A stretch of 63,520 nucleotides of DNA, filler included, from Stramenopiles sp. TOSAG23-2 (GCA_900128395.1; 7 parts of 7 records of this genome joined end to end with filler, not necessarily neighbours in it); one strand, 5' to 3'; shown: positions 35,901 to 56,500, counted from the whole stretch's first letter. Numbers and translations: made by a program. Notes: a model not told the origin generated them from the letters alone.

Positions 35901-36432
35901 TTAATTTTTCAGCACTTGTAACTTGCCCAGCACCTTCCACGACACGGCCAGCAGTTAATGGAATTTCTGGATCAAACCAACAATTTTTTAATACATTTTG
36001 GTTCTGTATTTGGGAACATACATTCGAATTGGGAGGGGGGCTTTGTTCAATTAGCTTCATATCATATTGCAATTTATTAACTTCAGTAAGTGACACAGGT
36101 AATGTAAATTGGTATCCACCTTCCGGCATAACATTATTTGTTGCTGAAAATTTTTTATTCAATATTTTTGTGGCAAAGTCTTGTGCCATATTTGCCTCAT
36201 CAAACATTTGTCCCATAATCTCTTCAGCAAATCCAGCTTGTGCAATAGCAAGACGTTGCAATGACTCCGTTTCTTCCTTCTCTAATGATTTCACAACTGG
36301 TACCATCCATTTCGTAGCATTTAATTCAATTAAACTAACACTGACAGCTATAATAATGATAATTCCAGTTAACAAGGGGACACCCGTAGCCACACGTAGA
36401 ATAGTTTTTAACGAGTTGTTCTGTAAACACAT
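32959..36432 (-). CDS. Receptor A: TM-dCache(amino-acid motif)-TM-HAMP-like-TPR-vWA
   Basis: N-terminal TM; YDPRHRPWY...PPYVD...VVGYDVS; TM2 then LPVQSLT...EVSMMKESFEHML (HAMP-like); TPR-like helices; vWA with DYSGS, T and SDGED (MIDAS). Confidence 0.85.
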   Translation of the reverse strand: MCLQNNSLKTILRVATGVPLLTGIIIIIAVSVSLIELNATKWMVPVVKSLEKEETESLQRLAIAQAGFAEEIMGQMFDEANMAQDFATKILNKKFSATNNVMPEGGYQFTLPVSLTEVNKLQYDMKLIEQSPPPNSNVCSQIQNQNVLKNCWFDPEIPLTAGRVVEGAGQVTSAEKLTISLKTTGIYWPHPRATGKMGPSQGGATGNCEGGKGTPCVPDPAYEFRDVKNLDSALLEEIKLTSYISELFQQTFLSNEAIEFMYIGTHGHGVFRTFPYGHSAGRVTKDRKSARDGITRSGYDPRHRPWYWQCEQAGKTMVTPPYVDATTDELVITVSTPIYDNNNKLLAVVGYDVSIARLAQIVLSAKVLQHGYAYLVTADQGYKYEEYGKPNIEDAGKLVVYPGLAAADIDSGNTQLIRWEFKSANDFEATAFVNDIYKRLIDPLTVPSLGTYNKSDNVWHIAYAPVKTPKYTLAFVVPDTDIRLPATQVEKLIASIVETQVGIFIAMVVVSSLIFIWMQVEVAHFVVLPVQSLTRVIDLIIRDIARDEADARQPNKRRGGKKNRGEVGRFELHVNDLIKPEDEGCKEVSMMKESFEHMLMALRFGSESAAKNDLKSAFMIYDEARNMFKSLSNVRGEGIATFNLGVISHKIWLQSEKQNMRAYADAENFYKLSIDNGNEIWNSLLNNNGKDDEEFVVPINPGGIELQTRGGGQQSGKGQPMAVAPIMMDPVMQQQSSDDSARIDEDQDVRIPKRLIGNDMADKLAARLHHYSQLLVDTAQLNKYNQAKIMLEQALMLDTNTNNLLGYSARVGLYGEVLFGLGQYQLAEKKVMGQLNILRNRVAMFEHAELTAERLQGMTRDQLKRSKSQYQEEEELFQAFQNGLIDAATMMANDPQKRHDMQALSLFKEALSCSQRTKKYTIAQIFIRMEAVVNRNFERLSVKFCQSYAEELAKNKGATGGGNPKDVIFVVDYSGSMSGGKIRRAREGITSVVRDHMYQGMDKAAVIRFNSSVTTMCELTGDKDKLYDIIANLSKPSRATALWDGLGAAIEMLKEGSINNKKVDSWIVCVSDGEDNKSKKFTPAQVGNLIKRLRINIVILSVGVTEKQALDDMRHVANSNADKCIGEIIEISSSSEIDEAFANIGSIVGQNLDVQHY

Positions 36433-37301: not shown

Positions 37302-39157
37302 ATGGCAAACCGAAGAAAAAAAGAGAACAATCAATACAAACAAAAAAATTTGTGGGTGCATAAGTGTCAATTTACGAAATTACACTATCAAACAACAAAT
37401 CAGTACCGGTCTTATATCAGTCTCGTTTATCATATTACTTTCCTTGTGCTTGGTCAGTATTATATCAATTGTTGATCTTGGAAACCAAACTTCAAAAGCG
37501 GCCATGGACAATTTAAGATTACAGATCGAAACAAATGCTAGAAATTTCTCTACGTTAAATGCAGATGAAATCAGTGCCACTTTGCAACGCAGGGCAGCTG
37601 CAGCAAATTTGATTGCATATGCTATGAGTGATTTTTACTTAGCCACGGAACTAACATTTGATAAGGATGCGATATCCTACTTTGATGAACAAGTGACAGC
37701 TGGTTCACCAGTCCCAGGGGTTACGTTTAATAAGAACGATAATAACTTTCCATTGTATAAAACAAAGGAAACATCGAGTTATTATATACCTAAAACAACT
37801 AATACTACAGCAGGCACACCAGCGCGAGCACGATTGAATGGTTGCTATTTACCAAAAGGAGATACGCTTCGACAATATGGAACTCCAATGGATGAGTCAG
37901 GTTGTAAAGAGTTAACAACGGTGTTAGCAAGTGACCCATTGTTGGTGAAACAAATTCAACGTAGCGTAAAAATCAATCGTTACTTTAAAGATTTTTCAAA
38001 AAAAATTCCTGATATCTATGCAATATACTTTGGCTTCCGTTCATCTGGCCTATTTAGACAGTTCCCTGGGAGTAATGACAACTCAGACGGAAACACTCCA
38101 CGTACGTATGATCCAAGAAAGCGACCATGGTATTTAGATGCAATGAATGGAAAGAAATACGCATCAAGTACAACAGGGGCATGGTTTGGCCAAACGATTA
38201 TTACAGCACCATATCAAGATTTTTGGAGTAAAGTATGGATGGTAACAGTTGCAAAAGCAGTTTACGATGACGTCAAAAATTTAGTAGGTGTATTAGGAAT
38301 TGATGTTAGCATCAAAACCATACAAGATGAAATTCTTAAAGTACATTTCTTAGAATCAGGTTATGTTATATTGACTGAATCTGCATCGAGATCAGCAAGC
38401 AATATGAAAGAAAGACTTGTCGTTTCTGCGCCAAATTTTGAAAGTTACGTTACAAATGGAAATGTATATTTTAAAGATGTACTGCCATCCGTTGCAAGCA
38501 ATTCCACGTTATTCAATAGTTTGTGGTCGGAAACAAATGTCAAATATTACTCAGAACGGGAAAATGATGAAGAAAAAAACTATTTACTTGCATATAGCAG
38601 TGCTGGCAGCACAATGTTTCGTGAACGGTATACTGTTTTTATAGTTATTCCGGAAGGGGAAGCATTAGGCGTTTTGCCAACATTAGAAAAAACAATTCTT
38701 GAAACAATAGAGGAAGTTGTTGGAATTGTCAGCGCAACTTCCATTACTACTGGTCTTGTCACTTTATTGATAATTATTACGGTAACAAATTCGATATCAA
38801 AGCCTGTACAAGCAATGGTTCAAATAGCTCAATCCATTGTCAAAGGTGCAGCTGAACAGAATTTAGTGAAAGACTTTGAAAGACAAGAACGAGCAATGAA
38901 AGCAGTACGTGATTATGCCGGAGTGAAAGAAGGCTTTACAAATGCTGATGCAGGAAGGAGAAAAAATTAATAATGAGATGCAATTATTGGCAAGGAGTTT
39001 TTTGACGATGACTAGTGGTTTGAAACGAGATGCCAATCGAGAGAAAGCACTTGTTAAGCATCCAATTAATCCATATCACATGGATCAAGAAAGTGAATTT
39101 ATGGGTGATTTTATAGATCAAAATTTAGCAGTGGAAGTTGAAGCAAAACAAATGTAA
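37302..39157 (+). CDS. Receptor B: TM-dCache(amino-acid motif)-TM-HAMP-like with short tail; two +1 frameshifts in A-runs (37316-37322, 38961-38966)
   Basis: Reconstructed MANRRK-RTINTNKKICGC...TM1; YDPRKRPWY...APYQD...VLGIDVS; TM2-SISKPVQAMVQIA...NEMQLLARSFLTM. Confidence 0.8.
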
Positions 39158-39503: not shown

Positions 39504-41106
39504 TTATTTTTTATCCTCTTTTCTATCTTCTTCTTCGGTATCAAAACAACGAAGATTTTCCCTCACTTTCCCCGCTGCTACCCATTCATTTATAAAATCG
39601 TTTTTAGCCTCCTTTGATATATGTGCATTGAATCGTATATCGACTGTGGTTACACTTGTACTATTTAATGCATATGCTTTTAAAGCATCGAAACCTTCCA
39701 TACCAATCATATTACCACTCAATTCAATTTCTTCCAATGCCATTACATCTTCATTGTCTAACTTAACCAATTCGTTCACCAATGCTATTATACCATCTGA
39801 ACTAATGTCATTTTCTCTCAAATCCAATCTCGTCAGATTTCTAAAGCAAGGAGACTTTTCATCATCTGCAAGTGCAGCTGCAAGACTTTTAACCCCACCA
39901 TTGCCAATGTTATTACCTGCAATTGATAAGTCATCGAGCCTGGCTGTGTACGACATGCCTTGCAATATGGCATCAAAACCTTCTTCATTCATATTAATAA
40001 ACATCAAATTCAATATTCTTAACTTGTTGCATCGCTGAATGATTTTAAATAAGACTTTGCATCCCACCGGTCCAAGAGGATTTTTGCTTAAATTTAATAT
40101 TTCAAGGTTCCTCCAGTCACAATTTGAATCTAAAATAGTCTCTAAACCATATGGATCAACGTGGTTGTCTGATAAATTCAACATATTTAAATTTAAAACG
40201 TTTTTCAATATGAATTTAATTGTATCGCAATCTCTATTAATAATATTTTTCCCCGACAAATCCATGACATCATAATGACCACCTTCTAATTCTTTCTCAT
40301 TCGGTTTGCCAATCAACTGCCTGATTTTCCTCTGTTGTTTCTTAAGAAATGGGCGTTCCCATAAATATACTGAATATAAATGACAAAATACCATAAGCCA
40401 TGATATAATCAACGTTGGATACCAGAATAAGCCTATGATATTGTTCAATCCTTGATCGACCTTTGCATTCCTAAAAAAATCTTCACACCCATCCTCTACT
40501 GCTTCTTCTGAACATGCATTGAACATACCCCTTTTCCAAAAAAGATTGCTTTCATCGGCCATATGTTTCGGCATATGGCCCATAAAGACTGCAAAAATAA
40601 CAATCCAAACTAAGTTGAAAGACAGGATAACGCCTTTATAAACTATATTTTCCCCACTTTGATTTAAATAAAACCCGCCAAATAAAAACACAAAGCCACT
40701 TTGGATTACAGAAATGATCATTGCAACATCGTGGAAAATCATGATGGGAACATAAATGAAACCCATGAAGGCTAACAATGGTAAATGGATACATGTTAGC
40801 GTAGCGATTAGAATTAAAGTTGTTTCGATTTTCATCGCTTTGCGTCTCTGTTGGAAAAATGCAGTTGAAGTTAATCTCGCAAGAGTACTACTTAATCTCG
40901 CACGAATACCATCATCAATTTCATTATCACCATTTGCTAACTCTGCTTCTAAGATTACCCTTTCGTAATTTGTTTCTATAACAAAAATTTCTAATACTGC
41001 TATTAGCACCCTTTGCCAACATTTCTGGCCATAGATAGAACTTTCTACTAACATATGCTCTAATTTCCAAAGCAACATACCTATAGAAAATTCTATTAAT
41101 GCTAAT
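39504..41106 (-). CDS. Giant gene part 3: further TMs plus RI-like leucine-rich repeats
   Basis: LNLSDNHVDPYG, LNLSKNPLGPVG, LSIAGNNIGNGG, LDLRENDISSDG; overlaps part 2 in the +1 frame. Confidence 0.75.
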
Positions 41107-44100
41107 TATCAATAAGTTTAGGCAATATAATAAAACAAAAAGAGGGGGATTTAAAATATTTTGGATGAAAATATAGAAAAACCAAAACACGACTGGAAAA
41201 ACAAGTCGAAAATACTTTGAATGTGGCTCCATGTCGTCGTCTAGTATCCTTCTATCATTTTCCATTTGTGCATTAGGGAAAAGTTCATTATCTCTTTTCT
41301 TAACACAACATTTACAACCAAAGATGTGAACAAAAACACGCATTGGTTGGTAAAAAGGAAAGGTCAAGATGTGCATAATGGCGAATGGAAATGCAAGCGG
41401 TATGACCAACAATCTATTATACCATTCAACCTTATTATCTCCAGTACATTTTATTACCTTCCATACCTCTGGTAAATACATGCCATTTACCCCCGACATT
41501 TCCAAGTAACCTAAAACACCAGAAAAAACTATAAAGACAAACATAAATGCCTCTATTGCAAGTATTACTAACCCGAAAGAAAACCCTGCAATACCAACAA
41601 TAATTTGTACAACTATCATAAAAGATTTCCCAAGACATGGCATTAATGTTTCAATAGCAAAGTGTCCCAATGCCAGCGGGAAATATTGGAAAAACAGAAA
41701 ATGTTTAGTTGGAAATCCAACTTCACCATATTCTTTGAGTCGCTTATCTTTATATTTTTTATTATATTTTTGACTTGTTGCTTCACGCAAAAGCACAGTT
41801 GATCCACACAGCACATATTGTATTGGCATTGTTGCCAACCAAACTACAGACACAATAAAATATGCAGGAATTAGTGAGCCAGCATGGACTATGCCGCCTT
41901 TAAAGCTGAGACCATCTTCGAAGCAAGGGCCATATGGAGTGATCGAAATCACAATCAATAAAGGAATACAGATGCACCCACAAATTATTGCAAAAATAAT
42001 TGCAATGCCATATGCCATTCCTTTTAAAAATATTTTAATTACAACATCATAAGAAAACCATTTAAGTTGCCTCCAAAAAATAGAGAAGAAAAGTACATGT
42101 AAGTTCAATATAGAAGATGTGGATACTTGCATAATGAGCACGGATGGATCTGGGCTCAGCGCAGTCTCCATATTCTTCTCTACACCCATATGTACATCAT
42201 ACGCCATTTTGACAATATGTGGCTCAATATCTTGATATTTCTCAATATAATTAGCGTATACATCCTTTTCGACTTCATCATCGCCATCTTTACCAATGGC
42301 ATGTGGTACTACCTTTTCCTTGCTGCGCCCTTTATATTTACCACAGCAAATTGCTCTCCATGCTGCAACAACTATACCTTTCTCATCATTACTTTTTGCA
42401 AAACAAAAACAATAAAGGAACATCAACGGGAAAATAGCTAAGTTTGTGAACGGGTATATATGGAGTAAAATGGCGTACATGAAAAGGGCAAGTATTGTTG
42501 GGATAAGATCCCGTTTTTTGTCTTTAACGTTTCCAACACTTTCTATGAAAGTCCCAATCAATAGAACATTGGAACAAATTACAATACTCATGGCCAATGA
42601 TAAGGAGCCAGCAATTAATCCAAAAACAAGCAATATTAATCCAACGCATAAATAATATAATAATGAACCAAACAATTGGCCGATATTTTTGCCACATTTA
42701 CAGGTCGTATTTAGAATATCATTTAATCGTTCTGCCAAATGTTTCCATACTATATTCCAAATTTTATTCTCGAACGTTATGTTTGGATCAAAAAAATCAT
42801 TAAATAATTGAAATTTACAAACCAAAAGATTCAAAACAACCCCCAACAAGAAAAACGTAAAGAAATAAAATACAAATTGTATCGTTATTAATGTTGCATT
42901 GAACGCTATTTTAAACAAATTGGAACGAATATTTAATTTATCAGACTTCTTTAATCTGTTTGATTGCAACACCACTTTTAGTGCCTCTACAGTTTTTGCC
43001 ATGTCTTTTTCATTTGCTAAATATACTTTTGACAACAGCGCCTCATCAAACATGTTTAGTTCTAACAAAGCAAGATAGGCTTTATTGGAAGATATGCTTT
43101 TGTCGTCTTCCTCTTTTTCTCCATCTTCAATTGTATCTGCTTTGTCAGTAGTATCTGATAGCTCTTCTTCTACGTCAATATTGTCAAGATTTAGCATGGT
43201 TTCTTTCTCGTGCTTAAATTTTGACTTTACTTCCTTGAATTCTTTATATGCGCGCTTCGAGTTTTTAATCCACGTTCGCCATTGAATACAACCGAGTCTA
43301 ATAATTAATGACATAATACACATTGATACATAAAAGATGATTCTTACTGGAAGATAATATAGACTAAAAATCAAAAATTTCCCTGTAACATCGCGAATAA
43401 GGAATATCATTACAATTTTTGTTCCTTTCAAAAATTTTGATATAACCCAAATCGTACCAACGATAGTATGCACTATAATTTTACCAAGCATGGTAAAACA
43501 GTTGCTAGGAATCGCATAAAATTTCTGATAAAGACGTATCTCCTCAAGTCTGTTATCCAAACATTTTGCAATCTGTTTGTTTGTACGATTGCAAATAATT
43601 TTTTCCAGCCTCTTCAGAACGGCGTTTTGAGCTGTTTGCCTTAACCTGCTACGTCCAATCGAATTTGCATTAATAAAATCTGGTGTCTTTTTTAATTCTA
43701 GATACATCAGTGCCCCATACAATTTAAATATTGGTTCTTTTTTCTTCGTATTAAATTTATCACCATTATTTTCCATAAAGTCTATCAAAGCATTTTTATC
43801 ATTGTTTCTAAGTTTTTTTCTTTTGTGGCACCAACCAAGATCAAACATTAATTTTTTGAATTGTATACAGGTAATACATATCATAATTGTCATAAACAAT
43901 TGGAACGGAAAAACGATCAGGAAAAGAACACTTTCAAGGAACCATGGGATAAGAACCGCAAAGAATATTTTACTATATCTACCCGTGTCCGGATCTTTCA
44001 TGTCCTTATAATACTCCAACAGATTTCCACTGACAAAAACGACTATTACCATTGGAAATTGTATAATCACACAAAGAAACGTTACAATCCCACTTATTAC

Positions 44101-47100
44101 ATACACAATAATCCAGCCCATGTTTAGCAATATATTTTCTGCAAACCATTTTGAAAAATATACTAAAAATTCCTTGATCCAAAAAGAGATATCACCAATA
44201 TCTTCACTTCTACCATCTAAAGTTAGCATAAAATACTTGAATACACTTTCAAAAACTCGTTTATCCAATGGTATGGTTGCATCTGACAATTCATTAATCA
44301 GTAACCTGACATGCGTCAAATTGAAAAATATGAAGAGGGCCATTACCAATTGAAACGGTAAATATAGATAAAACAACACCGTAAGAACAAAATAACGAAC
44401 TAAAACCTCATTGTTCCATGGCATGGTAATTTCTAGAAAACGCTCAAATAATGTATCTTTGTCCTCCTCCTCCTCGCCTTCTTCCACCTCTGGTTTAGCT
44501 CCTTCAATAAAAAGTTGCTTCCATGCTTTAGACCAAAACAGTCTACCACAACAAGTAGTAAATAACATAATTATGGTCAGTAACCATAATGGTGACAAAA
44601 CCAGAAAGGCAATAAAAGAAAAGACACCTGCCAAGAAATTTAACGTGATGATGTAGAAAAGATTTCCATAAAATTCAAACCATGTCAACAACGCAACCCG
44701 TATCATGTCATCGAATGCTTTTCCTTCATCCTTTCCGGAAGCAAGGAAAATCTTTTGCACGCGTTCACGTGGCAGGATTTCCATTGCCAACAGTCTTTCC
44801 ATAGCAGCACCATCTTTGGTTAGCTTCCGTAATATATTAGTTTGCGCAGCTAATTCATTTTCACTTGACTTGGCATTATCCCCTTTCCCTTCATTGTCGT
44901 TCTCCTCTATTTTCTTTTCCTCGTCAGTCTCCGTTCCATCTTCAATATCAATGGTTTCATGATCCGAATCTTTCGGTCCAAACACTGTGCGGCGTATTGT
45001 AGTACTAGTCACAAATAACAGTGATGGTTTATTATTGTTTTCAAAAAAATGATCTTCTACACCATCTATGAATTCCATTAAATTGAAAATCGTACACGCA
45101 ATGACAATTGCCATTGCGATTTCAATTACAAATGATACAACTACGCATGTTAATGCCAAAATGAAACATAATATTCCAATTAGAGATATTACCATCGCAA
45201 CAATTGTATCAAAAACGTACAGCTTGAAGCAAGCACCAGCATTTTTCAAGCCCTTAGGACCTTCTTTGGCAACAGCAGCTTTGTACTTAATCATGACATT
45301 ATAAATATCTTTCATAATGCTTGCAAATTCACTCCCTATTACCCCAAAGCGTATTATCCATTTTTGATAAAGTGTTGTTCCCGGATCACAAAATAAGTTT
45401 TTACAAAGTCTTGGTATCCTATAGAAACTTAAAAAAATCACCACTAACATTAAAAGTTGACATGGGAGGACGAAAGCGAAAAATATAATAGTTAGAAACA
45501 AATACTCTACAGCAGAGAACATGTACCTGTGACTATTACTTAAATTCTTTCTCTTCAATTTGTTAACTAATTCCATACGATAAGGCCCCAAACAAACGAT
45601 TAGGCCGCTTATAACATTAAAAATACACATACAAGATACAGGGATCCATGACAATATAACAAGTAAAAGCCTTGAAGTCGAATTAAGAAAATAAATTGGA
45701 ACAATTGAATATAAACGTACATCTGTAAATCGTTCAAACCATCGATAGATATGTTCCGTATACTGTTTACGTATTTCAAAAGTCGATTGTTTCCGAATGA
45801 TTTCCATGTCCATCGTCTCTTCTATCTTCTCTTCGTCGGTGTTCGTTGGTTCTTTTTCCTTTTTTTCTTTATTTAATGTCTTCTTGTCTCGTTTTGGTTT
45901 CACAAATATTATTTTTTTGTTTCTCTTTTCAGTCCCATTTACCAGTTTGTAAATCGCCTTTGTCAGATCTTCAATATCATCTTCGACTTCCTGCTTATTT
46001 TCTTGGTTACTTATTAATATGCCTAAGCTTAAAAAGCGACCAATAAGATCAAATACTTGTGCTAAGAGAAACAATATAACTTCTAAGAAAAAATACGAAC
46101 CAATATGAATAAAAACCACAACAAGCATAATACTACGTATTATTCTCCAAGTAAAAACATACATTGCAACAATGAAACACTGCGGTATGATAATATACAT
46201 TTTTTCCATCCTACTTGATTCTTTGCTAAATAATTTTTCTAGGCATCGTTTAAATTCCACGTGTAGAGGCGAGGTAGCGATTAAAACGATTAAAAAAACA
46301 AATTCAACTGGCATCCAAAGCCATTGCAAGAAATATGTTTCGAGAAAATACTTTACAATGATAGACAATCTTGTAAATGGTAATGCTAGACTATATGGTT
46401 CGTAACCAGGTTTTTTGCCCTCCTCTACCAACTCATCGTAGCAATATTTCCATGTAATATGTTCATTCGGACCGAAAAAATAATACACGACCTCGCCGGG
46501 AGAAGGAATTAAAATTAAGATAAACAATACCGCACCAACTACATGCAACACAATTTGTACGACGCACCATGCTACGATTGCAATGTCAAATATAACTGAA
46601 GCACAAAACATTTTGGGAATGAGAACAAACCAAGCGTAAAAGTTAAGCGTTAGCCATTCGTTACACTTCCCTATAAACAGAGGCATTGTTAACATATTTA
46701 CGTGCGTTTTTTTAATTTCACTTAACGTTTTAGTACGATTGTATCCATTCTTGATATATACTTCAATGATCTCATCGTCCGTGATAGATTTCGTATAAGG
46801 CTTGAAATTAAGAACAAGTATATCTTTGCCTTCCTCCACCTTCTTTACGTCCGCTATTTTTGCATCCGTTAATTTCGAATCAACGGATATTGCCTTTGTT
46901 TTTTCATCTTCGTCGTTTGCTGTAGCATTGAACACATCCTTACTTTTCAATTCAATCCCTACAACTTGAGTCTCCGCATTTGTATTAGTAGTATTTTTGT
47001 CGTTGTTATCTCTTCCGAACCAAAAAGACTGTTCCTTGCTAACTTCAGAATATTCTTCTTTCCCTAAGATACACGTATACACTAGCATAATCATTTCAAT

Positions 47101-48804
47101 TGGGATCCATACCAAAGAAAAACTTGCGAAGATTATTAACAATGGCAGGTAAAGCACAAATATTATGAAATCGATAAGACTAAATAAAAATCTAGAAATT
47201 ACAGCAAACAGGCGTTCATTGAACGTGAAACGATTATACTTCATATCTAAAATAAATATTATATTTCCAAAATGCCATGGATTCAAGAAAGGTGTTACAA
47301 AGGCTAGCGGCACTGATACTAAGATCACCAAATCTTGGGCTATATTTATAAATAACATTGCAGGGAATGTAAAAAATATAAATACCCAACCAACAATTGG
47401 CTCCATCCAATTTTTATTTCGGAGGGCGCCAAACGTTGAGTCCTCACGATACCAATTGTAATTAAAATAAATCGGATTAGTAACTGCCAATAATAATAAG
47501 CAAACGCCAATCACAATAAAATATGCAGCAATTGCTGGAAAGAAAATAAAAATGAGGAAGCGTCGAAGTGCAATTAAACCATGAGTCCAAACGAACTTAA
47601 ACAATTTGTCTTCTCGATCCATATCCTTTGCATTCTTGTAATTCTTGACAAACTCAAAATAGTTATCCGTATCATAAATCGAGGTTATCAAAATAAGCGA
47701 AATGAAAAAAATATACGATGGAATCAAGAAGATATGAGCAAGCGCCTCACAAAAGTACGCGGTAGTTCCGAAGACGTATTTCCAAAACCAATCTCCTATT
47801 TTTTCCTCTGGTTTTATAATCAAATGTGCTTTTTTATTCATTATCTCATTCCTCCAGGCATCATATTCCACAGGACTTAGCCAAATGACGATTACCATGC
47901 AACTTTGTAATAAAAATAAACACAATAAAATTGGGGAAAATATGACCAGACTAAGTAGTTTTATCTGATGCATTAACTTTCCCTTTCCATCCCGTACAAA
48001 ACAACACATTGATATGGCGTATATAATAACCAAAACGATAAATACGATGAAGTAAACCCACCAAGGTATACATGGAAAATACCAAATGTCCATCTCACTT
48101 TTAAAATTTCCGCTGGATGGTACCGGTTGTGGGCATATACCTGCTAGTATTTTATTGGAGTTGCTTACATTTCCAGCTTTCAGCGACTGTGCGTAACATG
48201 AATGGACAGGCTCTTGACATCTAAAGTTTGTCCTTGTCGTAAATCGCGTTTCATCCTGTTCTGTTATAGGATTCTTGTATTTATAATGAATCAATGTAGC
48301 GTAGGAATTATCATCACTACATTTTCGCCCGTACAGGCACTCATTAAATGGGAAAATTTCGTTTGTGCATGTATCAATCTTCTCCATTCTTGCACATGGT
48401 GGATCAGCGCAGTGATAGCTGTTGTGGGGGGGATCTTCTTCATCGTCTATTTTGCAAGAATCTTCACTAGATTCATGCTTTGCTTTATCTTGTATGATTA
48501 AAATTGCGTTGGAGCCTGGGATACGTTTAGCTATTAGACCGTCACGTTTCTCATTTTTTACGATCATTTGCTCTGCGATTTGACTGGTCTCTAAGAATTC
48601 CATAGTGGACAAATCTTTGCAAAAACTATTCCCCCAATTTAAAGATCTTGCAACACATTTTTCCAATTTACCAATAGTAGGGGAACCAGTATCTCCTAAT
48701 AAAGCTTTGAATTTTTCTATCTCAGGGTGGTATATTAACGCACCACTTAAATCGACGACATAATATTGTGAAGAATCTGGTTTATAATGTTGCCCCCCCC
48801 CCAC
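40927..48804 (-). CDS. Giant gene part 2: end of second dCache, Cys-rich stalk, very long repetitive polytopic membrane region with UBA/CUE-like modules
   Basis: YYVVDLSGALIYHP continues the Cache domain across a G10 frameshift; dozens of hydrophobic segments separated by acidic loops. Confidence 0.75.
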   Translation of the reverse strand: MGGGQHYKPDSSQYYVVDLSGALIYHPEIEKFKALLGDTGSPTIGKLEKCVARSLNWGNSFCKDLSTMEFLETSQIAEQMIVKNEKRDGLIAKRIPGSNAILIIQDKAKHESSEDSCKIDDEEDPPHNSYHCADPPCARMEKIDTCTNEIFPFNECLYGRKCSDDNSYATLIHYKYKNPITEQDETRFTTRTNFRCQEPVHSCYAQSLKAGNVSNSNKILAGICPQPVPSSGNFKSEMDIWYFPCIPWWVYFIVFIVLVIIYAISMCCFVRDGKGKLMHQIKLLSLVIFSPILLCLFLLQSCMVIVIWLSPVEYDAWRNEIMNKKAHLIIKPEEKIGDWFWKYVFGTTAYFCEALAHIFLIPSYIFFISLILITSIYDTDNYFEFVKNYKNAKDMDREDKLFKFVWTHGLIALRRFLIFIFFPAIAAYFIVIGVCLLLLAVTNPIYFNYNWYREDSTFGALRNKNWMEPIVGWVFIFFTFPAMLFINIAQDLVILVSVPLAFVTPFLNPWHFGNIIFILDMKYNRFTFNERLFAVISRFLFSLIDFIIFVLYLPLLIIFASFSLVWIPIEMIMLVYTCILGKEEYSEVSKEQSFWFGRDNNDKNTTNTNAETQVVGIELKSKDVFNATANDEDEKTKAISVDSKLTDAKIADVKKVEEGKDILVLNFKPYTKSITDDEIIEVYIKNGYNRTKTLSEIKKTHVNMLTMPLFIGKCNEWLTLNFYAWFVLIPKMFCASVIFDIAIVAWCVVQIVLHVVGAVLFILILIPSPGEVVYYFFGPNEHITWKYCYDELVEEGKKPGYEPYSLALPFTRLSIIVKYFLETYFLQWLWMPVEFVFLIVLIATSPLHVEFKRCLEKLFSKESSRMEKMYIIIPQCFIVAMYVFTWRIIRSIMLVVVFIHIGSYFFLEVILFLLAQVFDLIGRFLSLGILISNQENKQEVEDDIEDLTKAIYKLVNGTEKRNKKIIFVKPKRDKKTLNKEKKEKEPTNTDEEKIEETMDMEIIRKQSTFEIRKQYTEHIYRWFERFTDVRLYSIVPIYFLNSTSRLLLVILSWIPVSCMCIFNVISGLIVCLGPYRMELVNKLKRKNLSNSHRYMFSAVEYLFLTIIFFAFVLPCQLLMLVVIFLSFYRIPRLCKNLFCDPGTTLYQKWIIRFGVIGSEFASIMKDIYNVMIKYKAAVAKEGPKGLKNAGACFKLYVFDTIVAMVISLIGILCFILALTCVVVSFVIEIAMAIVIACTIFNLMEFIDGVEDHFFENNNKPSLLFVTSTTIRRTVFGPKDSDHETIDIEDGTETDEEKKIEENDNEGKGDNAKSSENELAAQTNILRKLTKDGAAMERLLAMEILPRERVQKIFLASGKDEGKAFDDMIRVALLTWFEFYGNLFYIITLNFLAGVFSFIAFLVLSPLWLLTIIMLFTTCCGRLFWSKAWKQLFIEGAKPEVEEGEEEEDKDTLFERFLEITMPWNNEVLVRYFVLTVLFYLYLPFQLVMALFIFFNLTHVRLLINELSDATIPLDKRVFESVFKYFMLTLDGRSEDIGDISFWIKEFLVYFSKWFAENILLNMGWIIVYVISGIVTFLCVIIQFPMVIVVFVSGNLLEYYKDMKDPDTGRYSKIFFAVLIPWFLESVLFLIVFPFQLFMTIMICITCIQFKKLMFDLGWCHKRKKLRNNDKNALIDFMENNGDKFNTKKKEPIFKLYGALMYLELKKTPDFINANSIGRSRLRQTAQNAVLKRLEKIICNRTNKQIAKCLDNRLEEIRLYQKFYAIPSNCFTMLGKIIVHTIVGTIWVISKFLKGTKIVMIFLIRDVTGKFLIFSLYYLPVRIIFYVSMCIMSLIIRLGCIQWRTWIKNSKRAYKEFKEVKSKFKHEKETMLNLDNIDVEEELSDTTDKADTIEDGEKEEDDKSISSNKAYLALLELNMFDEALLSKVYLANEKDMAKTVEALKVVLQSNRLKKSDKLNIRSNLFKIAFNATLITIQFVFYFFTFFLLGVVLNLLVCKFQLFNDFFDPNITFENKIWNIVWKHLAERLNDILNTTCKCGKNIGQLFGSLLYYLCVGLILLVFGLIAGSLSLAMSIVICSNVLLIGTFIESVGNVKDKKRDLIPTILALFMYAILLHIYPFTNLAIFPLMFLYCFCFAKSNDEKGIVVAAWRAICCGKYKGRSKEKVVPHAIGKDGDDEVEKDVYANYIEKYQDIEPHIVKMAYDVHMGVEKNMETALSPDPSVLIMQVSTSSILNLHVLFFSIFWRQLKWFSYDVVIKIFLKGMAYGIAIIFAIICGCICIPLLIVISITPYGPCFEDGLSFKGGIVHAGSLIPAYFIVSVVWLATMPIQYVLCGSTVLLREATSQKYNKKYKDKRLKEYGEVGFPTKHFLFFQYFPLALGHFAIETLMPCLGKSFMIVVQIIVGIAGFSFGLVILAIEAFMFVFIVFSGVLGYLEMSGVNGMYLPEVWKVIKCTGDNKVEWYNRLLVIPLAFPFAIMHILTFPFYQPMRVFVHIFGCKCCVKKRDNELFPNAQMENDRRILDDDMEPHSKYFRLVFPVVFWFFYIFIQNILNPPLFVLLYCLNLLIISINRIFYRYVALEIRAYVSRKFYLWPEMLAKGANSSIRNFCYRNKLRKGNLRSRVSKW

Positions 48805-51800
48805 ACTGCTTTATCAAATATAGATTTTAATGTTTCTACACTAAAATCTAAACCAGCGACTCCAGCAACAGTCTTATTTTCATCACTTAACACAGCAACC
48901 GATAAAGTCGAACACGGTTTTTTACTAAAGGTATCTATGTAAGTCGACAAACATGTCCACGTGGGATATTCTACGCTACGCATGTACCATGGCCGTTTTC
49001 TAGGATCGTAAAAGCGTGATTCGGGTGCGCCAGTCAATTTTCGGAAAACACCATTCGTTGTTCCAAAATATTTAGCAATGACCGATGTCCCTAAACCTGG
49101 ACGTTCTTTCCAACATTTTTCAACGGAGCGAGTTAAGAAAATATCTTCCAGTACACGAGGTCTTACCATTTTTTCAAAATCAAGACGTGCATCAAGCTCA
49201 TCGCTATTAATTAAGTCATTATACCGAGTTACGCGATCTACGCTTTCCTTTATTGAATGTCCTCGGTCCAAATCCCCTTGTTGAATATATAGGTACGGAT
49301 CACGATATGCACTGGATGCCAATTTCCAAACGCTTTCCTCAAACGTAACATTCGTCTGCGTATAATACCCTTCACAAGTAGGGAACCCAGAGTCAAAATA
49401 TGTATTAGGCGTTGGTACAACGTCTACACGATGGTACCAATCTTTGTAGTCCTTGCTTAATTTTGTCTGTGCATTGGTAACACTTCCAGGTTCAATGACA
49501 CGAATTTTTGCATCTTGATCTTCCAATACGAATGCCACGCTAAATTCAACCTTATCAACTTTCTTCCAATATATGTTTGCGCAAAATGTTAAATGCGTTG
49601 CTCCTTCCGCCGATGTCCCTCGTGGCATTAGCATTTGCATTTTTACGTATTTCGAACCGCTACCGCCAGCAGTCATGCTGTTACGAATTTCATTGATAAA
49701 AGTTTGATCCACGCCTTTTGAACTGTCCCAACTAGATGCAATCCCATCACATGATTGTAAAATCATCAAATCTTTGATATCCACAAATTTTGGATTTTTG
49801 CCATTTTTATCCTCAGGGGATGGCAGCGAGGGGTGATAAAGAACCCTGCCAGAAAAATCAATTAAGAACCCAAATGATTTTTTACCGTGATTTTTTGCAT
49901 CTGCTAAATCTTTGAAAATATCAGCAACTGCTAAATCAATGCCTGCAACACCAAAATAACGTTCTTGATCTTGCAAAATAAACGTTTCGTTTTTGGACAC
50001 ATCTTTATTCATATACATTGGTACTGCCCCGGTTATGACTACGCCTAAGCCTGAAAAATCGAAATATGGTAATGTCAAACGTACTCCTCCTTGTTGTGAT
50101 TCATACAAGTAATTCCCTGTCTCGTAGTAGGTGCCCATTTTGGACATCAAATCGCCAAAATTTTCATCCTTCACAAACACAGGTTTTATTACGGACATAT
50201 CTGAAATTTCAGATTGATATTCTTCCACGCCTGCACCTAATAAGAAGTTAAAGAGATCAGGTGGAGTTGCCATTTCACCGCTTAATTTTTCAATTAAAGC
50301 TTCTACTTGTTCGAAATTTTCTGTAACGCCTTCTTTCCCTGTTTTTGGCAATGTTGGAGCGCCATCTGTTAAAAATATAATAGCTGACTTACGAGAACTT
50401 AATGTTTTTCTTGAATTTAAATATTCAAATGCCGTAGTAAATGCAGCATGGTAATTTGTTTTGCCATTAGGTGCAATAGTCTCGATAAAATGGTTTAAAA
50501 ACTCTTTGTTGTGATGATTTGCTGGTGCTAAATTTCTAGTGCCTTCTTCTATCGATCCTCTGTAATCGATTGTTTTGCGAGCACCGGCCGTGCAAACATA
50601 ATCAAATGGATCACTTTCCAATTTGCTTTTCCATAATTTATTTTCTAGACTATTAGGATCTTCAAGGCAGCACAAATAGGCGTCTCCACGCCCGCGGCAA
50701 TGGCGGGCATCTTCCAGTTTGAAAGCTTTGTAATCCTTATTATTATTGCAAGTAGTAGCACCACAACAGTCAGAATTATCACACAAATCAACCCTGCAGT
50801 TGCGGGGTCCAGTCGTTGGAAAATGCACTACATCACTAAACGATATAACTGCAACACGATCATCATCATTCAACGTTTTTAAAACTTGTTTGGCAGCTTT
50901 TTTTGCATATTTCATACGATCGTACTCCAACATACTACCACTGCTGTCGATGATGATGACAATATCTTTTGGTTCACCAGCAGCTTTAACATACCATGGT
51001 CGTGTACGTGGATCATATGCAGGAATATCCGTTAAAAAATACAACCAAACCCACATAAGTAATAGCGGCAAGGCAAATCCAACCAACCAATATGCAGTGC
51101 ATTTTTTGCCCAGGCCTCTACCACCTGTTGTAGCTTCATCATCACCATCATCATTATTCTTATCTAAAACAACTTTATTTATCTGTGGAAAAATCACAAA
51201 AGTTGAGATGTAAAATAATGAAAAGATAGAAAGGGCCCAAAATACAATTACGGCAATTAACCCCCCGGACATTTCTTGTCCAAAATTATTTGAACCATTC
51301 GCATCAATAAATTCGCCATCTTCTGTTATATCACGCCGAAACCCTACTAACAATGCCAATGTAAAAGGAACGTAATCAAGCCAAAACAATAAAAGAGCAA
51401 TCCATGCCATAGCCCTTTTCTCATATAATTGACCAGTTTCAATAGTTTCAGATTGAAAATGGACCAAATCTTCCTCAGCAAGCGTCTCATCATCGTTCTC
51501 ATTTTCTTCTTCTCTTTCATGATCCCTATCACCACGCACTTTAAAAGTTTCTTTTTTCAGTTTAAATGTTTTTTGTTCATTGGTCATCGCTCGTAATTCT
51601 CGACTGGGCATTTTCATCAACCGTTTTCCATTTTCACTTTTTCCAATCAAAATTATGCCATAATAATCTTTGATGAAATAAATCCACCATATATGGAAAA
51701 TTATTGTTGGCAACACAAGTAGCGTTAAAGCAAATATCAATACACGAAATGTCGGTGTAAAATTGCGGCCAGTAGATATGCCTAGTATTCTATCCCTTCG

Positions 51801-52499
51801 AGCGGGGTATCGCCTGTGATAGCCGGAAGTCGATGAAACATATTGCCATTTAATTGTTTTCGCAGTTTCAAAATTTTCTTTAAATACTTCATCCAGTTTC
51901 GCTTCTTTACACGCTGCTTCAAATCGAAGTAAATTTAAATGTGAACTAAATATATCATCGGTTTTCTGGGGGTAAATCTCTGTATACCATGGTAAATTTG
52001 CACATGAATGTTTCGGATCGACTGAGGAGTAAAATGCATCGTTGTACCGCGCCTCGTGATCGTTAAAGTCTTGACATAGATCAATTGTCCAAATGGCATC
52101 TCTTCCTTCTTTGGCATACATTTCGTTCGCTTTTTTATCTATAAAGTCAAAATTTGTATTATACTGGTCCTCTAATTTATTTTTCAAATTTGTTAACGGA
52201 GTAATTAACTTCTGTTCAATGGTAGTTGCAACATGCGCTGCCATATCTTCAAGTATACGCGTACCATTTACATTATTCGAAATGTATTTTGCATCGTTTG
52301 AATAAGTATTTTGCAAGACGTTGGTACATAGTTGCTCACGTGATAATTTTTTTAAATCAGCAGATATTTTATCAGCAATCTCATTGATTTGTGTAAAACT
52401 AGAATAACTTGGAGCACAAGACACGATTGTTGTTTTTATTATTATTATAGTTAAAATAATAACTAAATGTTTTAGACTACAATGGTGAACTGGCGACAT
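48747..52499 (-). CDS. Giant gene part 1: alpha2delta/CACHD1-like ectodomain (signal peptide, dCache with inserted vWA, second dCache) plus 4-TM insert
   Basis: LDEVFKENF...IKWQYVSSTSGYHRRYPA; YDPRTRPWY-KDIVIIIDSSGSM...FLTDG; TLPYFD...GVAGIDL; GFLIDFSGRVLYHP; second YDPRKRPWY...YID...GVAGLDF. Confidence 0.85.
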   Translation of the reverse strand: MSPVHHCSLKHLVIILTIIIIKTTIVSCAPSYSSFTQINEIADKISADLKKLSREQLCTNVLQNTYSNDAKYISNNVNGTRILEDMAAHVATTIEQKLITPLTNLKNKLEDQYNTNFDFIDKKANEMYAKEGRDAIWTIDLCQDFNDHEARYNDAFYSSVDPKHSCANLPWYTEIYPQKTDDIFSSHLNLLRFEAACKEAKLDEVFKENFETAKTIKWQYVSSTSGYHRRYPARRDRILGISTGRNFTPTFRVLIFALTLLVLPTIIFHIWWIYFIKDYYGIILIGKSENGKRLMKMPSRELRAMTNEQKTFKLKKETFKVRGDRDHEREEENENDDETLAEEDLVHFQSETIETGQLYEKRAMAWIALLLFWLDYVPFTLALLVGFRRDITEDGEFIDANGSNNFGQEMSGGLIAVIVFWALSIFSLFYISTFVIFPQINKVVLDKNNDDGDDEATTGGRGLGKKCTAYWLVGFALPLLLMWVWLYFLTDIPAYDPRTRPWYVKAAGEPKDIVIIIDSSGSMLEYDRMKYAKKAAKQVLKTLNDDDRVAVISFSDVVHFPTTGPRNCRVDLCDNSDCCGATTCNNNKDYKAFKLEDARHCRGRGDAYLCCLEDPNSLENKLWKSKLESDPFDYVCTAGARKTIDYRGSIEEGTRNLAPANHHNKEFLNHFIETIAPNGKTNYHAAFTTAFEYLNSRKTLSSRKSAIIFLTDGAPTLPKTGKEGVTENFEQVEALIEKLSGEMATPPDLFNFLLGAGVEEYQSEISDMSVIKPVFVKDENFGDLMSKMGTYYETGNYLYESQQGGVRLTLPYFDFSGLGVVITGAVPMYMNKDVSKNETFILQDQERYFGVAGIDLAVADIFKDLADAKNHGKKSFGFLIDFSGRVLYHPSLPSPEDKNGKNPKFVDIKDLMILQSCDGIASSWDSSKGVDQTFINEIRNSMTAGGSGSKYVKMQMLMPRGTSAEGATHLTFCANIYWKKVDKVEFSVAFVLEDQDAKIRVIEPGSVTNAQTKLSKDYKDWYHRVDVVPTPNTYFDSGFPTCEGYYTQTNVTFEESVWKLASSAYRDPYLYIQQGDLDRGHSIKESVDRVTRYNDLINSDELDARLDFEKMVRPRVLEDIFLTRSVEKCWKERPGLGTSVIAKYFGTTNGVFRKLTGAPESRFYDPRKRPWYMRSVEYPTWTCLSTYIDTFSKKPCSTLSVAVLSDENKTVAGVAGLDFSVETLKSIFDKAVWGGGNIINQILHNIMSSI

Positions 52500-53319: not shown

Positions 53320-55026
53320 ATGTCTGATAATACTGAACAACAAGAAGAACCAATGTATGCTCTTGGAATTGATTCTTCCACGCAATCTTGTTCAGCTGTA
53401 ATAATTGATTTAAAAAATAAAAATGTTATCATAGAAGAGTCTATTAATTTTGGACAATCGTTGCCGCAATATAATGCACCACAAGGTTTTATTGTTAATA
53501 ATGATATTCCAAATGAGTTTCACTCAAATCCATTAATGTGGTTAGATGCGCTTGATTTATTAATGGAAAAGTTAAAAGCAGAATGTGATTTGTCTAAAGT
53601 GAAATTTATATCTGGTGCTGGTCAACAGCATGGCTCTGTTTATTTAAATTCAACATGGTTTGATACTATAAAAAATTTAAATCATGAGCAAACGTTAAGT
53701 TTACAAATAAAACCATGTTTGTCTAGAGATTCGTCACCAATTTGGATGGATACGTCAACGTTAAGAGAATGCCAAGAAATTGCGAAGGAAGTTGGCAATA
53801 GTGAAAAAGTATGTGAATTATCTGGATCGATACCAACAGAACGTTTTACAGGGCCACAAATTCGTAAATTTTACAAAGAAAGTGCTTCAAATTACGAAAA
53901 TACGAGTAGAATACATTTAGTCTCTTCGTTTATTGGTAGTATAATTGCAGGTATAGATTCGCCGATAGACGTAGGGGATGGCGCAGGAATGAATTTAATG
54001 AATATAAAACAATTCGATTGGGATGAAACTTTATTAAATGCAACTGCACCAAATTTAAAGTTAAAATTACCTTCCATTTGCAATGAAAATTTAAATATAA
54101 GCTCTTCTGTTTCTAGCTATTTTATCAATAAGTATGGATTTTCAAATGATTGCAATGTTGTTCTATTTACTGGCGATAACCCTTCGTCCTTAGTTGGTAT
54201 GGGTGCTACTTCAACTGGTAAAGTTGTTATCAGTTTAGGTACAAGTGATACTTTTTTTGCTGCAATGAAAGATCCATGCACGGATCCAAATGGTAGTGGC
54301 CATGTATTTGGAAATGCTATAGAATTGAATCCTACTACATCGTCCTCAAACGATGACATATCAAAGTATATGACCTTGCAATGCTTTCTAAATGGTTCAT
54401 TAGCACGTGAAAAAGTAAAAGATCGTTTTCAAATGTCATGGGATGATTTTTCCAATGCATTATCTTCAACAAATATTGGAAATAATAAAAATATAATGTT
54501 GCCATTTTTTGGAAATGAGATAAGTCCAAAAATAATCGGGGATAACATTGAACCCATACTTTCTGGTACGGAAGATTTTAAAAATTGGAAAAATGCCAAT
54601 GAAGCAATACGTGCATGTGTGGAATGTCAAATTATTAATATGAAATGTTGTGTGAAATGGATGAATTTGTCACCAACACATATCTTTTTAACTGGTGGTG
54701 CAAGTGAAAATAATAATATTGCACAGATTGTAGCAAATATATTTCAGGCACGTGTATCTAGATTACAATCAAGTAGTTCATGTGGATTGGGTGGTGCTAT
54801 TAGAGCAGCTTCATGTAGCAGTAGTAATAATGATGGCAACAAATTATATGAAATGATTGAATTGCAAAATATTTATTGTAAGTTTGATCCAAATAAAGAT
54901 GTATTACCATCATCATCAAATGGTGATAGTGACAATAATGTGAAGGCTACTTACGATGATTTGTGTAATTCATATGTAGAGTTATTATTATCAACACAAA
55001 AAGAGGGAGGTTGGAGTAAAGTGTAA
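53320..55026 (+). CDS. xylB: Xylulose kinase (FGGY family, eukaryote-type)
   Basis: LGIDSSTQS, ISGAGQQHGSVY, SPIWMDTST, ERFTGPQIRKF, GDNPSSL, ISLGTSDT and TGGASEN motifs. Confidence 0.9.
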   Translation: MSDNTEQQEEPMYALGIDSSTQSCSAVIIDLKNKNVIIEESINFGQSLPQYNAPQGFIVNNDIPNEFHSNPLMWLDALDLLMEKLKAECDLSKVKFISGAGQQHGSVYLNSTWFDTIKNLNHEQTLSLQIKPCLSRDSSPIWMDTSTLRECQEIAKEVGNSEKVCELSGSIPTERFTGPQIRKFYKESASNYENTSRIHLVSSFIGSIIAGIDSPIDVGDGAGMNLMNIKQFDWDETLLNATAPNLKLKLPSICNENLNISSSVSSYFINKYGFSNDCNVVLFTGDNPSSLVGMGATSTGKVVISLGTSDTFFAAMKDPCTDPNGSGHVFGNAIELNPTTSSSNDDISKYMTLQCFLNGSLAREKVKDRFQMSWDDFSNALSSTNIGNNKNIMLPFFGNEISPKIIGDNIEPILSGTEDFKNWKNANEAIRACVECQIINMKCCVKWMNLSPTHIFLTGGASENNNIAQIVANIFQARVSRLQSSSSCGLGGAIRAASCSSSNNDGNKLYEMIELQNIYCKFDPNKDVLPSSSNGDSDNNVKATYDDLCNSYVELLLSTQKEGGWSKV

Positions 55027-55110: not shown

Positions 55111-55210
55111 NNNNNNNNNNNNNNNNNNNNNNNNNNNNNNNNNNNNNNNNNNNNTTAATTAATTAANNNNNNNNNNNNNNNNNNNNNNNNNNNNNNNNNN
55201 NNNNNNNNNN
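55111..55210. other. Artificial contig linker
   Basis: 44 N + TTAATTAATTAA + 44 N. Confidence 0.98.
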
Positions 55211-55522: not shown

Positions 55523-56500
55523 GTGAATACGAAGAAAGGCTTAGGTACGGCTTTAAGAAACTGGGAGACCTTCTGTAAAGAGTTTAATTTCAATAACCGT
55601 CTAGATTTTACGGGTAGTTTCCAAGAGAGGCGACTGCAAACGATCCGTCTGTGTAACTGGTTACAGTGGAACACATTACGAAAGAGTAAGACTAGTGAGA
55701 AGAAAGCAATGACGTCGGCTGCATCCTTTCTGACATACGTATATAATTTGCAAGCGGCACACCAGCGGGAGGGCCGTGAGTGGAAGATCACGTACGAGTT
55801 TCACTTAATGAAGAAGCGCTTGAAAAGACAATACGGATGGGGGGGGCGTAGGAAGCTGCCCTTGTTCATATCGATGATAGACAAGTTGGAATCGACGGGG
55901 GCCTTGATTTTGCATATAGGAGACGACACGCAAGTGATTACGATTATGTTGATGACAGTGTTCGGACTAATGAGAATTTCGGAAGTATTAGATCTTAAAG
56001 TAAAAAATGTTCGAGAGACACAAGTGAACCAAACACAAGCATTGATGCTGACGCTCGAGGACAGTAAGACAATGAAACGAAACAGAGGAAAGCCAGAGAT
56101 AGTCATGCTAGTAGAACGAGAAGGTACGTCCAGGTGGTGCCCATACAAACTATTGAGGGACAAAGTTCGAAGTATGAAAGCGGCAAACATAAATGGAAAG
56201 ATATTCACAATGCCTCGGAGGAGATATAGCGATAAATTAAGGAAGGCACTGAGCCTGATAGGTTTCGACAGCAAATTGTACGATACACATAGTGGCAGAA
56301 TAGGTGGTGCCACTATGTTGTGGGAGAAGGGTATATCGATGGAGCAGATAAAAGCATATGGTAGGTGGCAATCGGACTGCTGGTTATGGTATTGCAGAAG
56401 ATTGAGCACGGATTATGTGAAACTTAGCAGAGCAATAGGTAGTTCAACAACAGTTAGTAGTGAACTAGTATCTCAGCTGATATGGGTGTCACAAGAGTGA
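55523..56500 (+). CDS. Tyrosine recombinase (integrase)
   Basis: GLMRISEV (R), SKT (K), HSGRIGGAT (HxxR), GRWQSD (W) and WYCR (Y); the frame is open upstream to about 55439. Confidence 0.88.
   Translation: MNTKKGLGTALRNWETFCKEFNFNNRLDFTGSFQERRLQTIRLCNWLQWNTLRKSKTSEKKAMTSAASFLTYVYNLQAAHQREGREWKITYEFHLMKKRLKRQYGWGGRRKLPLFISMIDKLESTGALILHIGDDTQVITIMLMTVFGLMRISEVLDLKVKNVRETQVNQTQALMLTLEDSKTMKRNRGKPEIVMLVEREGTSRWCPYKLLRDKVRSMKAANINGKIFTMPRRRYSDKLRKALSLIGFDSKLYDTHSGRIGGATMLWEKGISMEQIKAYGRWQSDCWLWYCRRLSTDYVKLSRAIGSSTTVSSELVSQLIWVSQE

Follow-up and report, generated by a model that had tools for sequence, protein, structure and literature searches.

Can a ligand-binding domain that lies outside the cell be split by a bundle of membrane helices and still fold, and what would such a bundle do for the protein that carries it? 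This question is raised by an open reading frame (ORF) at 48747-52499 on the minus strand of the DNA analysed here, a stretch of 63,520 nucleotides from Stramenopiles sp. TOSAG23-2 (GCA_900128395.1) that we refer to as the window. The ORF encodes 1250 residues (P0001) resembling alpha2delta, the calcium-channel subunit that is the target of gabapentin in humans, and we find that the beta2-alpha3 loop of its first double Cache domain (dCache1) is replaced by a real and conserved cassette of four hydrophobic helices. The ORF accounts for no more than the initial 29% of the full protein: the gene, at 39504-52499 (-), specifies one chain of about 4,330 residues, broken into three ORFs in the assembly, and this chain comprises a leader, an alpha2delta-like ectodomain with the four-helix insert, a Cys-rich stalk, about 38 further hydrophobic helices and a C-terminal leucine-rich repeat (LRR) region. 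This order of parts, from the leader through the insert-bearing ectodomain and the Cys-rich stalk to 38 hydropathy peaks and LRR_6 repeats, is also that of P0019, a protein of 4326 residues collinear with the three window ORFs at 98.9, 97.4 and 85.4% identity, and a more distant orthologue, P0014 (4018 residues), is also colinear with the window gene. The window consists of several contigs joined by runs of N and a short spacer (gaps such as 55111-55210), and the whole gene sits in one contig. Coordinates below are positions in the window, and all features of this gene are on the minus strand.

A four-helix insert in place of the beta2-alpha3 loop

The Pfam domains of the ectodomain occur in the order VWA_N, VWA and dCache_1, with VWA within dCache1 and dCache1 nested in dCache2, which is the alpha2delta/CACHD1-type arrangement and is colinear with alpha2delta-1. 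VWA_N (PF08399, E 1.8e-11; residues 111-233, 51801-52169) forms the N-terminal half of the distal module of dCache1, is alignable to human alpha2delta-1 up to residue 221 and terminates in WQYVSSTSGYHRRYPA. Its end, RRYPA at residues 229-233 (nt 51815-51801), and the ligand-binding motif YDPRTRPWY at residues 495-503 (nt 51017-50991) are separated by 261 residues, in agreement with the initial annotation, which had estimated about 260 and had stated that alpha2delta proteins have a short loop here. Human alpha2delta-1 aligns to residues 15-234, then resumes at residue 492 with 11 residues in between in the human chain; this 11-residue linker includes the pocket tryptophan, and its counterpart in the window protein has 257 residues and four hydrophobic helices. 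The spacing is 7-19 residues in 12 of 13 homologues that lack the insert (the other, P0004, has no motif match) and 258-263 residues in three insert-bearing proteins. By alignment, the insert (residues 234-494, 51018-51800) occupies the place of the beta2-alpha3 loop, and it is conserved in P0014, P0037, P0038 and P0041.

Kyte-Doolittle hydropathy, calculated in a 19-residue window, gives exactly four peaks in the insert of P0001 (2.41, 2.14, 2.40 and 2.03; fifth-best 0.26), and the inserts of P0041 and P0014 likewise have four peaks (at least 1.78) with a fifth of at most 0.51. The four helices initially described, and hence their even number, are therefore found in three sequences; the description of two charged loops has to be amended, as three loops of about 87, 25 and 32 residues connect them. 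The first transmembrane helix (TM1, residues 253-275, 51675-51743; peak 2.41) is a helix in both structural models, is predicted to run from outside to inside and is followed by a conserved KDYYGI (IKDYYGI is identical in 6 of 7 positions in P0014). Loop 1 (residues 276-363, 51411-51674) is highly charged (17 K/R, 21 D/E) and predicted to be cytoplasmic, with an ETGQxY close to its end that is conserved in P0001, P0014 and P0038; it is also the most variable part of the insert relative to P0041 (60 of 78 identical). TM2 (residues 364-386, 51342-51410; peak 2.14), a helix in the models, would return from inside to outside. TM3 (residues 412-436, 51192-51266; peak 2.40) is the best-conserved helix (SxGLIAxIVxW), with 10 of 25 residues identical in P0014 and 10 of 24 in P0037, and it leads into loop 3 (residues 437-468, 51096-51191), also predicted to be cytoplasmic, whose acidic NDD(D)GD patch is conserved in P0001, P0014 and P0037. 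TM4 (residues 469-489, 51033-51095; peak 2.03) is five residues (TDIPA) from Y495. The conservation of the insert is patchy, peaking at KDYYGI, ETGQxY, the first half of TM3, NDDGD and the link between TM4 and the motif; this link (residues 490-503) is the best-conserved part adjoining the insert, being identical in 12 of 14 positions in P0014 and 13 of 14 in P0037. By their resemblance to known motifs, YYGI could conceivably be a sorting signal and NDDGD a calcium site.

An artefact was also considered: the insert could be intronic, could stem from chimeric assembly, or could be non-coding DNA whose frame is open by chance. There are frameshift errors elsewhere in the assembled gene, and the RNA contigs used here may contain DNA, both of which lend this explanation some weight. 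Against it, the frame is open across all 783 nucleotides, with no in-frame stop and 8-28 stops in each of the other five frames, and the G+C content at third codon positions (0.284) is that of the flanks (0.27-0.32). Contigs from 4 of 24 runs, two DNA and two RNA, were compared to the locus. Across the upstream edge at 51800 run one DNA contig (X3, 51381-51959) and one contig from ribosomal RNA-depleted RNA (X15, 51530-51960); the downstream edge at 51020 is spanned by a poly(A) RNA contig (X20, 50637-51630) and by the DNA contigs X2 and X3. No contig joint that skips the insert was found in these 4 runs, although contigs drop rare forms and a minor skipped isoform could escape; a single joint in X2, from 47931 to 52433, whose shorter side spans 20 letters, does not coincide with the insert edges and is probably foreign. 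The gene is likely transcribed, with the reservation that RNA libraries may hold DNA. The entire insert is also present in two independent assemblies, with synonymous to non-synonymous changes of 5:1 (L003) and 7:3 (L004), and five of the six read variants listed within it are synonymous, the sixth replacing K by R.

The comparison with P0014 carries the most weight. This protein is 39% identical over the ectodomain and has four hydrophobic helices at the same site, and its DNA has a G+C content of 52%, against 34-40% in the window gene, which indicates that the two genes come from different species. The insert has been kept at 34% identity between them, compared with 38% for VWA_N and 48-53% for the downstream region including dCache2. 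The open frame, the bridged edges, the independent assemblies and this orthologue rule out an intron or chimera, and the explanation by artefact, which is refuted by the orthologue, retains in our estimate next to no probability. The P0014 cluster includes a protein labelled Stramenopile-MAST_4 (MAST, marine stramenopile), residues 3057-6964 of which match P0014 at 93-99%. The 6964-residue MAST-4 record (P0031) starts with about 3,050 additional residues without counterpart in the window or in P0014, an N-terminal extension that is probably a gene-model fusion. One or two lineages in between are represented by the fragments P0037 and P0038. Given the MAST-4 orthologue, the organism of the window is probably a MAST-4-like marine stramenopile, and the samples in which its sequence occurs are marine.

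The insert is apparently restricted to these lineages. Among 7,736 protein candidates of 687-2188 residues we obtained 11 matches, none spanning the insert, and among 3,686 longer candidates two matches, both with the insert. A phmmer search against 1.84 billion representatives gave five matches, three in the insert and two to ordinary dCache proteins; a profile search gave three matches and a metagenome scan three loci. Absence of the insert elsewhere is weak evidence, because the search of representatives missed the insert of P0014 itself. The insert and the post-insert region, used as queries for paralogues in the genome, each matched their own locus only, counts that are lower bounds. Comparison with known four-helix families (claudin/CACNG, tetraspanin, pannexin/connexin, Cys-loop receptor) yielded in Pfam only DUF6637 at E 0.031, and a search of the ESM Atlas with the insert gave no match. 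Modelled alone, the insert reaches a mean predicted local distance difference test score (pLDDT) of 43, and its best structural matches (Z 8.8 to designed bundles, 7.4 to pannexin-2) are within helical-bundle noise. An origin by copying from the protein's own body was also rejected, as a four-sequence profile of the insert had no positive score on either body among the matches listed.

Full-text literature searches, whose coverage excludes most subscription papers, brought up neither the window protein nor any dCache domain that contains membrane helices. No membrane insertion inside a dCache domain is described in the passages of PMC8915833 or in the rows of its supplement that were available, though one could sit unremarked in its alignment figures S11 and S16, and the MAST-4 orthologue (protein_1263) is not among the entries seen of its Dataset S3.

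Predicted topology and binding pockets of the split domain

The initial annotation held that the two Cache halves stay on the same side of the membrane, and the evidence favours this arrangement. The ratio of K+R inside to outside is 9:4 in P0001 and 11:6 in P0014 for 15-residue flanks, favouring loops 1 and 3 inside, and 13:9 and 15:7, respectively, for 25-residue flanks. The two orthologues share the N-glycosylation sequons NGT (N78) and NVT (N1050), which flank the insert, one before and one after it. We strongly infer from these patterns that the helices cross the membrane out-in-out-in-out, with both Cache halves meeting outside, and that the pocket of dCache1 is kept directly at the bilayer, as only five residues lie between the end of TM4 and Y495. 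In parts of the structural literature on alpha2delta (PMC10761187, PMC9901441, PMC5655503, 10.1101/2022.10.03.510667) VWA and Cache1 are described as facing the extracellular loops of alpha1; this side is the membrane side, so helices leaving the dCache1 module can reach the bilayer. We found nothing in the literature that places the beta2-alpha3 loop itself relative to the membrane.

A different topology, in which the helices are real and some of them are re-entrant or lie on the surface, or in which the leader is an uncleaved anchor, so that no simple four-pass bundle is formed, would be compatible with the modest positive-inside bias and with the Asp and Pro in TM2 and the Pro in TM4. The four peaks of 1.78-2.52 in three sequences with nothing between them, the four long helices in the models and the conserved sequons on both sides of the insert make it very improbable.

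An AlphaFold2 model of residues 72-1005, built from a 14-sequence alignment and leaving the dCache2 modules outside, has a mean pLDDT of 63, with 83-88 in the Cache part before the insert and 82-92 just past the motif. The insert forms four long helices (residues 249-280, 355-393, 412-450 and 466-490) at pLDDT 55-67. The top ranks in Foldseek are alpha2delta-1 and CACHD1 (E 1e-23 to 1e-14), and in VIA-align 476-504 residues are superposed in one piece (root-mean-square deviation [rmsd] 3.3-3.8, Z 21-25). As the part after the insert could contribute at most 404 superposed residues for human alpha2delta-1, at least 100 of them precede the insert; the superposition spans both sides and therefore the split dCache closes in the model. 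The objection named in the initial annotation, that the split Cache might not fold in models, is thus countered by this model, in which pocket 1 may assemble in three dimensions, with an alignment that favours the known fold.

The amino-acid motif of dCache domains is defined as YxxxxRxW plus a Y...D in the distal module (Gumerov et al. 2022, PMC8915833, as given in the parts available). By this definition both pockets of the window protein are complete, and all of their motif residues are identical in P0014. Pocket 1 is made up of Y495, R500 and W502 in the motif's N-terminal part (residues 495-503, 50991-51017) and Y812 and D855 in its C-terminal part (49935-50066), the latter two aligned with the human Y and D. 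Pocket 2, in dCache2, has Y1164, R1169, W1171, Y1187 and D1218 (48846-49010) and is matched by Pfam dCache_1 (residues 1163-1232) and by the PctA and PctB chains. The VWA domain (about residues 512-790, 50130-50966), identified by Pfam VWA/VWA_2 and a fold match, has a complete MIDAS (metal ion-dependent adhesion site; DxSxS, T, D) formed by D518, S520, S522, T681 and D712, again identical in P0014. A Cys-rich insertion within this domain (residues 565-645, about 50560-50810) has 8 Cys, is mostly missing from P0014 and is modelled with low confidence. From its motifs, the protein is a putative amino-acid sensor with two motif-intact dCache pockets.

The beta2-alpha3 loop precedes the motif, and its W225 in rabbit alpha2delta-1 is described as helping to hold the ligand carboxylate (Chen et al., 10.1101/2022.12.05.519047, seen in part). 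In the window protein and its orthologue the V209 position is Tyr, as in gabapentin-insensitive isoforms, and the A455 position is Phe. With the pocket tryptophan lost and these two replacements, pocket 1 should be small or partly blocked.

CACHD1 is a protein with one membrane helix. It is the top structural match (PDB 8S7C, 9EQ6; Z 25.0, rmsd 3.8, 476 residues), and it shares with the window protein an intact dCache2 motif and the character of a transmembrane protein; it differs in having no membrane cassette in dCache1 and in retaining the motif in its second dCache (PMC8915833, in the parts available). Alpha2delta-1 (CACNA2D1; PDB 8IF3, 7MIX, 8FD7) is the best sequence match (E 1.2e-22; model superposition Z 21-22, rmsd 3.3-3.8, about 500 residues) and has in common the leader, the nested double dCache, the VWA in dCache1, the complete MIDAS and the dCache1 motif. 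Its C-terminus, according to the accessible portion of PMC9901441, is a glycosylphosphatidylinositol anchor, whereas the window protein continues into about 38 helices and LRR, and, unlike alpha2delta-1, the window protein has motif 2 intact as well. Because its loop is replaced by the insert and its C-terminus is polytopic with LRR, the window protein is not an alpha2delta subunit proper. It shares both pockets, YxxxxRxW ... Y ... D, with the protist "double-AA_motif" dCache_1AA proteins, which the sections of PMC8915833 consulted place near the root of the eukaryotic tree and which include two MAST-4 proteins. The motif is also shared with the bacterial dCache_1AA chemoreceptors PctA and PctB, which the window dCache2 matches at E 4e-8; in these the signal exits via a helix C-terminal to the dCache (PMC8915833, same sections), not via helices inserted beside the pocket.

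Possible roles: relay, anchor or channel subunit

Our main reading, offered tentatively, is that the protein is a two-pocket amino-acid receptor whose cassette relays the occupancy of pocket 1 either to the body or to its own cytoplasmic patches. Where the two dCache domains are nested as in alpha2delta, a membrane helix follows dCache2 alone, and the cassette would give dCache1 the helix that it otherwise lacks. With TM4 ending five conserved residues before Y495 and TM1 starting about 20 residues after the pocket-floor strand, pocket 1 would be tied to the bundle. A small amino acid would close the pocket, the loop ends would shift and TM4 and TM1 would move, and the bundle would pass this movement to the conserved cytoplasmic patches KDYYGI, ETGQxY and NDDGD, or sideways, via the conserved face of TM3, to the polytopic body and LRR tail. 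Such a protein would sense amino acids as a membrane receptor, through two pockets and with two output routes, and prey or nutrient sensing in a phagotrophic flagellate would be a plausible use. The relay is supported by the replaced loop lining the pocket in alpha2delta-1 (W225; 10.1101/2022.12.05.519047, seen in part), and direct coupling of a dCache to a membrane effector has a local precedent in another gene of this genome, a fusion of a dCache with a two-repeat channel.

Several observations weigh against the relay. TM2 and TM4 are identical to P0014 in only 3 of 23 and 4 of 21 positions, as expected of an anchor, and the positive-inside bias of P0001 is weak at 25-residue flanks. The packing of the helices has no confident model, either in context or alone, and the alignment behind the AlphaFold2 model included ordinary alpha2delta rows, which push it to the known fold. 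Within the pocket no Trp is left at the position of W225 (D/Q), that of Y219 varies between orthologues (R/I), and the bulky Y220 and F815 may narrow the space. In one study, amino acids alone left the surface expression of alpha2delta-1 unchanged (PMC9901441, available in part). Finally, the roughly 38 further helices and the LRR domain offer an alternative output route.

A passive anchor fits the anatomy nearly as well as the relay. The helices would fasten dCache1 and VWA to the membrane and lie against the polytopic body of the same protein, as the CaV (voltage-gated calcium channel) alpha1 loops do for alpha2delta, and the signal would pass via dCache2 and the stalk or be begun by VWA-MIDAS adhesion to prey. 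The number and spacing of the helices are conserved and the sequences of TM2 and TM4 are not, the W225 equivalent is missing, and dCache2 and the post-insert region are better conserved than the insert (48-53% against 34%), all of which agrees with a scaffold; the large body with its LRR tail would be a complete output without the insert. On the other hand, pocket 1 retains all five motif residues and its five-residue link to TM4 is nearly invariant, and the short motifs on the putative cytoplasmic face are conserved across lineages with no obvious need for them in a pure anchor. We regard a role as anchor or scaffold only as a serious possibility, though one that we hold with some doubt.

The ectodomain could also belong to a CaV accessory subunit that binds a separate four-repeat calcium channel through its MIDAS, with the cassette as a tethered membrane subunit touching the channel. 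The genome encodes four-repeat channels, one of them (L007) with an EEEE filter, no second VWA_N match was found in the assembly beside this gene, and the MIDAS is complete. However, known structures show alpha1 in contact with the side of Cache1 in which the insert sits, and the insert may obstruct this contact, about 38 helices are already present in the same protein, and the insert matched no known channel-subunit family (in Pfam, or in a fold search within helical-bundle noise), so that we consider this role unlikely.

The relay could be taken further. As a stramenopile receptor of 4,300 residues, the protein would be the first case of a dCache sensor whose connection to the membrane starts within the domain itself: an ancestor-like alpha2delta pocket, the equivalent of the gabapentin site, would drive its own four-helix bundle, and this bundle would gate or signal through the body, an unclassified array of about 38 helices built from repeats and ending in LRR. 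It would be independent of CaV, possibly a ligand-gated channel or receptor of a new class, sensing amino acids or prey in an abundant marine grazer. This extended proposal is speculative, and we think it rather improbable as a whole.

The remainder of the gene, its neighbours and implications

The protein begins with a hydrophobic leader (residues 1-30, 52410-52499; hydropathy 2.28 at residues 12-30), which is probably a signal peptide and has a comparable segment in P0014. The first and second ORFs are separated by an assembly frameshift at a run of ten G (48793-48802), which is 2 or 8 letters shorter in 4 of 4 runs, either length restoring the frame; P0013 and P0019 are continuous in one frame. 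The second ORF (40927-48804) contains the end of dCache2, the Cys-rich stalk and a polytopic body with degenerate internal repeats, with 35 hydropathy peaks and no Pfam family. A second frameshift, which the protein alone suggests, would fall in a T run at 40983-40987, where P0019 switches from the frame of the second ORF to that of the third at NSSIRNF/VIETNYE. The third ORF (39504-40983) supplies the final four hydrophobic helices and a ribonuclease inhibitor-like LRR tail (LRR_6, E 5.3e-13; match to the C-terminus of P0014, E 1.4e-34).

The body of about 38 helices matched no Pfam family, and an ESM Atlas search with a stretch of it gave no match; a Piezo-like identity, suggested by the similar helix count, is supported by neither. 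The same stretch as a query in the genome matched its own locus only, which is a lower bound. Its best off-diagonal internal match reaches 25 bits, against 8.0 in ten shuffled targets, and the degenerate repeats are located around residues 2300-2370, 2696-2740, 2790-2890 and 3200-3256 of P0019. A weak EF-hand is present in the body region of P0014.

Two neighbouring dCache genes, 32959-36432 (-) and 37444-38970 (+), have the ordinary short motif spacing. The former encodes a dCache between two transmembrane helices with a C-terminal, apparently cytoplasmic VWA, and a similar layout, with tetratricopeptide repeats ahead of the VWA, is found at another locus (L012, G000:C3550), which adjoins another dCache-like ORF; both depart from the VWA-inside-dCache rule stated in the available part of PMC8915833. 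Elsewhere in the genome, a 1573-residue ORF (L011:28-4749, plus strand; G000:C2302) has a transmembrane helix, a dCache (YNPKQRPWY, with a score under the Pfam cut-off), a second transmembrane helix, EF-hands and two Ion_trans repeats, and thus fuses a dCache sensor in one frame to a two-pore-channel-like protein; judging by its domains, a ligand-gated channel is a possible identity for the product. Channels with four repeats, each encoded in a single open frame, are found at L007 (G000:C732:18300-23800), whose EEEE filter is of the calcium type, and at L006 (G000:C1661). Upstream of the gene and divergent from it is an FGGY-family carbohydrate kinase (53320-55026, +), and past an assembly gap an ORF at 55523-56500 (+) with a weak tyrosine-recombinase match (PF00589, E 0.005) is possibly part of a mobile element.

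The ectodomain of this protein is of a known kind; the four-pass insertion in a pocket loop of a giant alpha2delta-like protein appears to be new. The function of dCache amino-acid binding in eukaryotes is stated as unknown in the part of PMC8915833 seen, and its role is hard to settle partly because the dCache1 of alpha2delta has no membrane helix of its own. With the window protein, nature offers a construct whose pocket loop has been swapped for a membrane bundle; it shows that the beta2-alpha3 loop tolerates a polytopic insertion of 260 residues, and it makes coupling from pocket 1 directly testable. The alpha2delta scaffold, known from an accessory subunit, here forms the head of a giant polytopic protein, in stramenopile flagellates that graze on bacteria in the sea. 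Even if the bundle is an anchor only, a soluble domain split by four membrane passes is an unusual topology.

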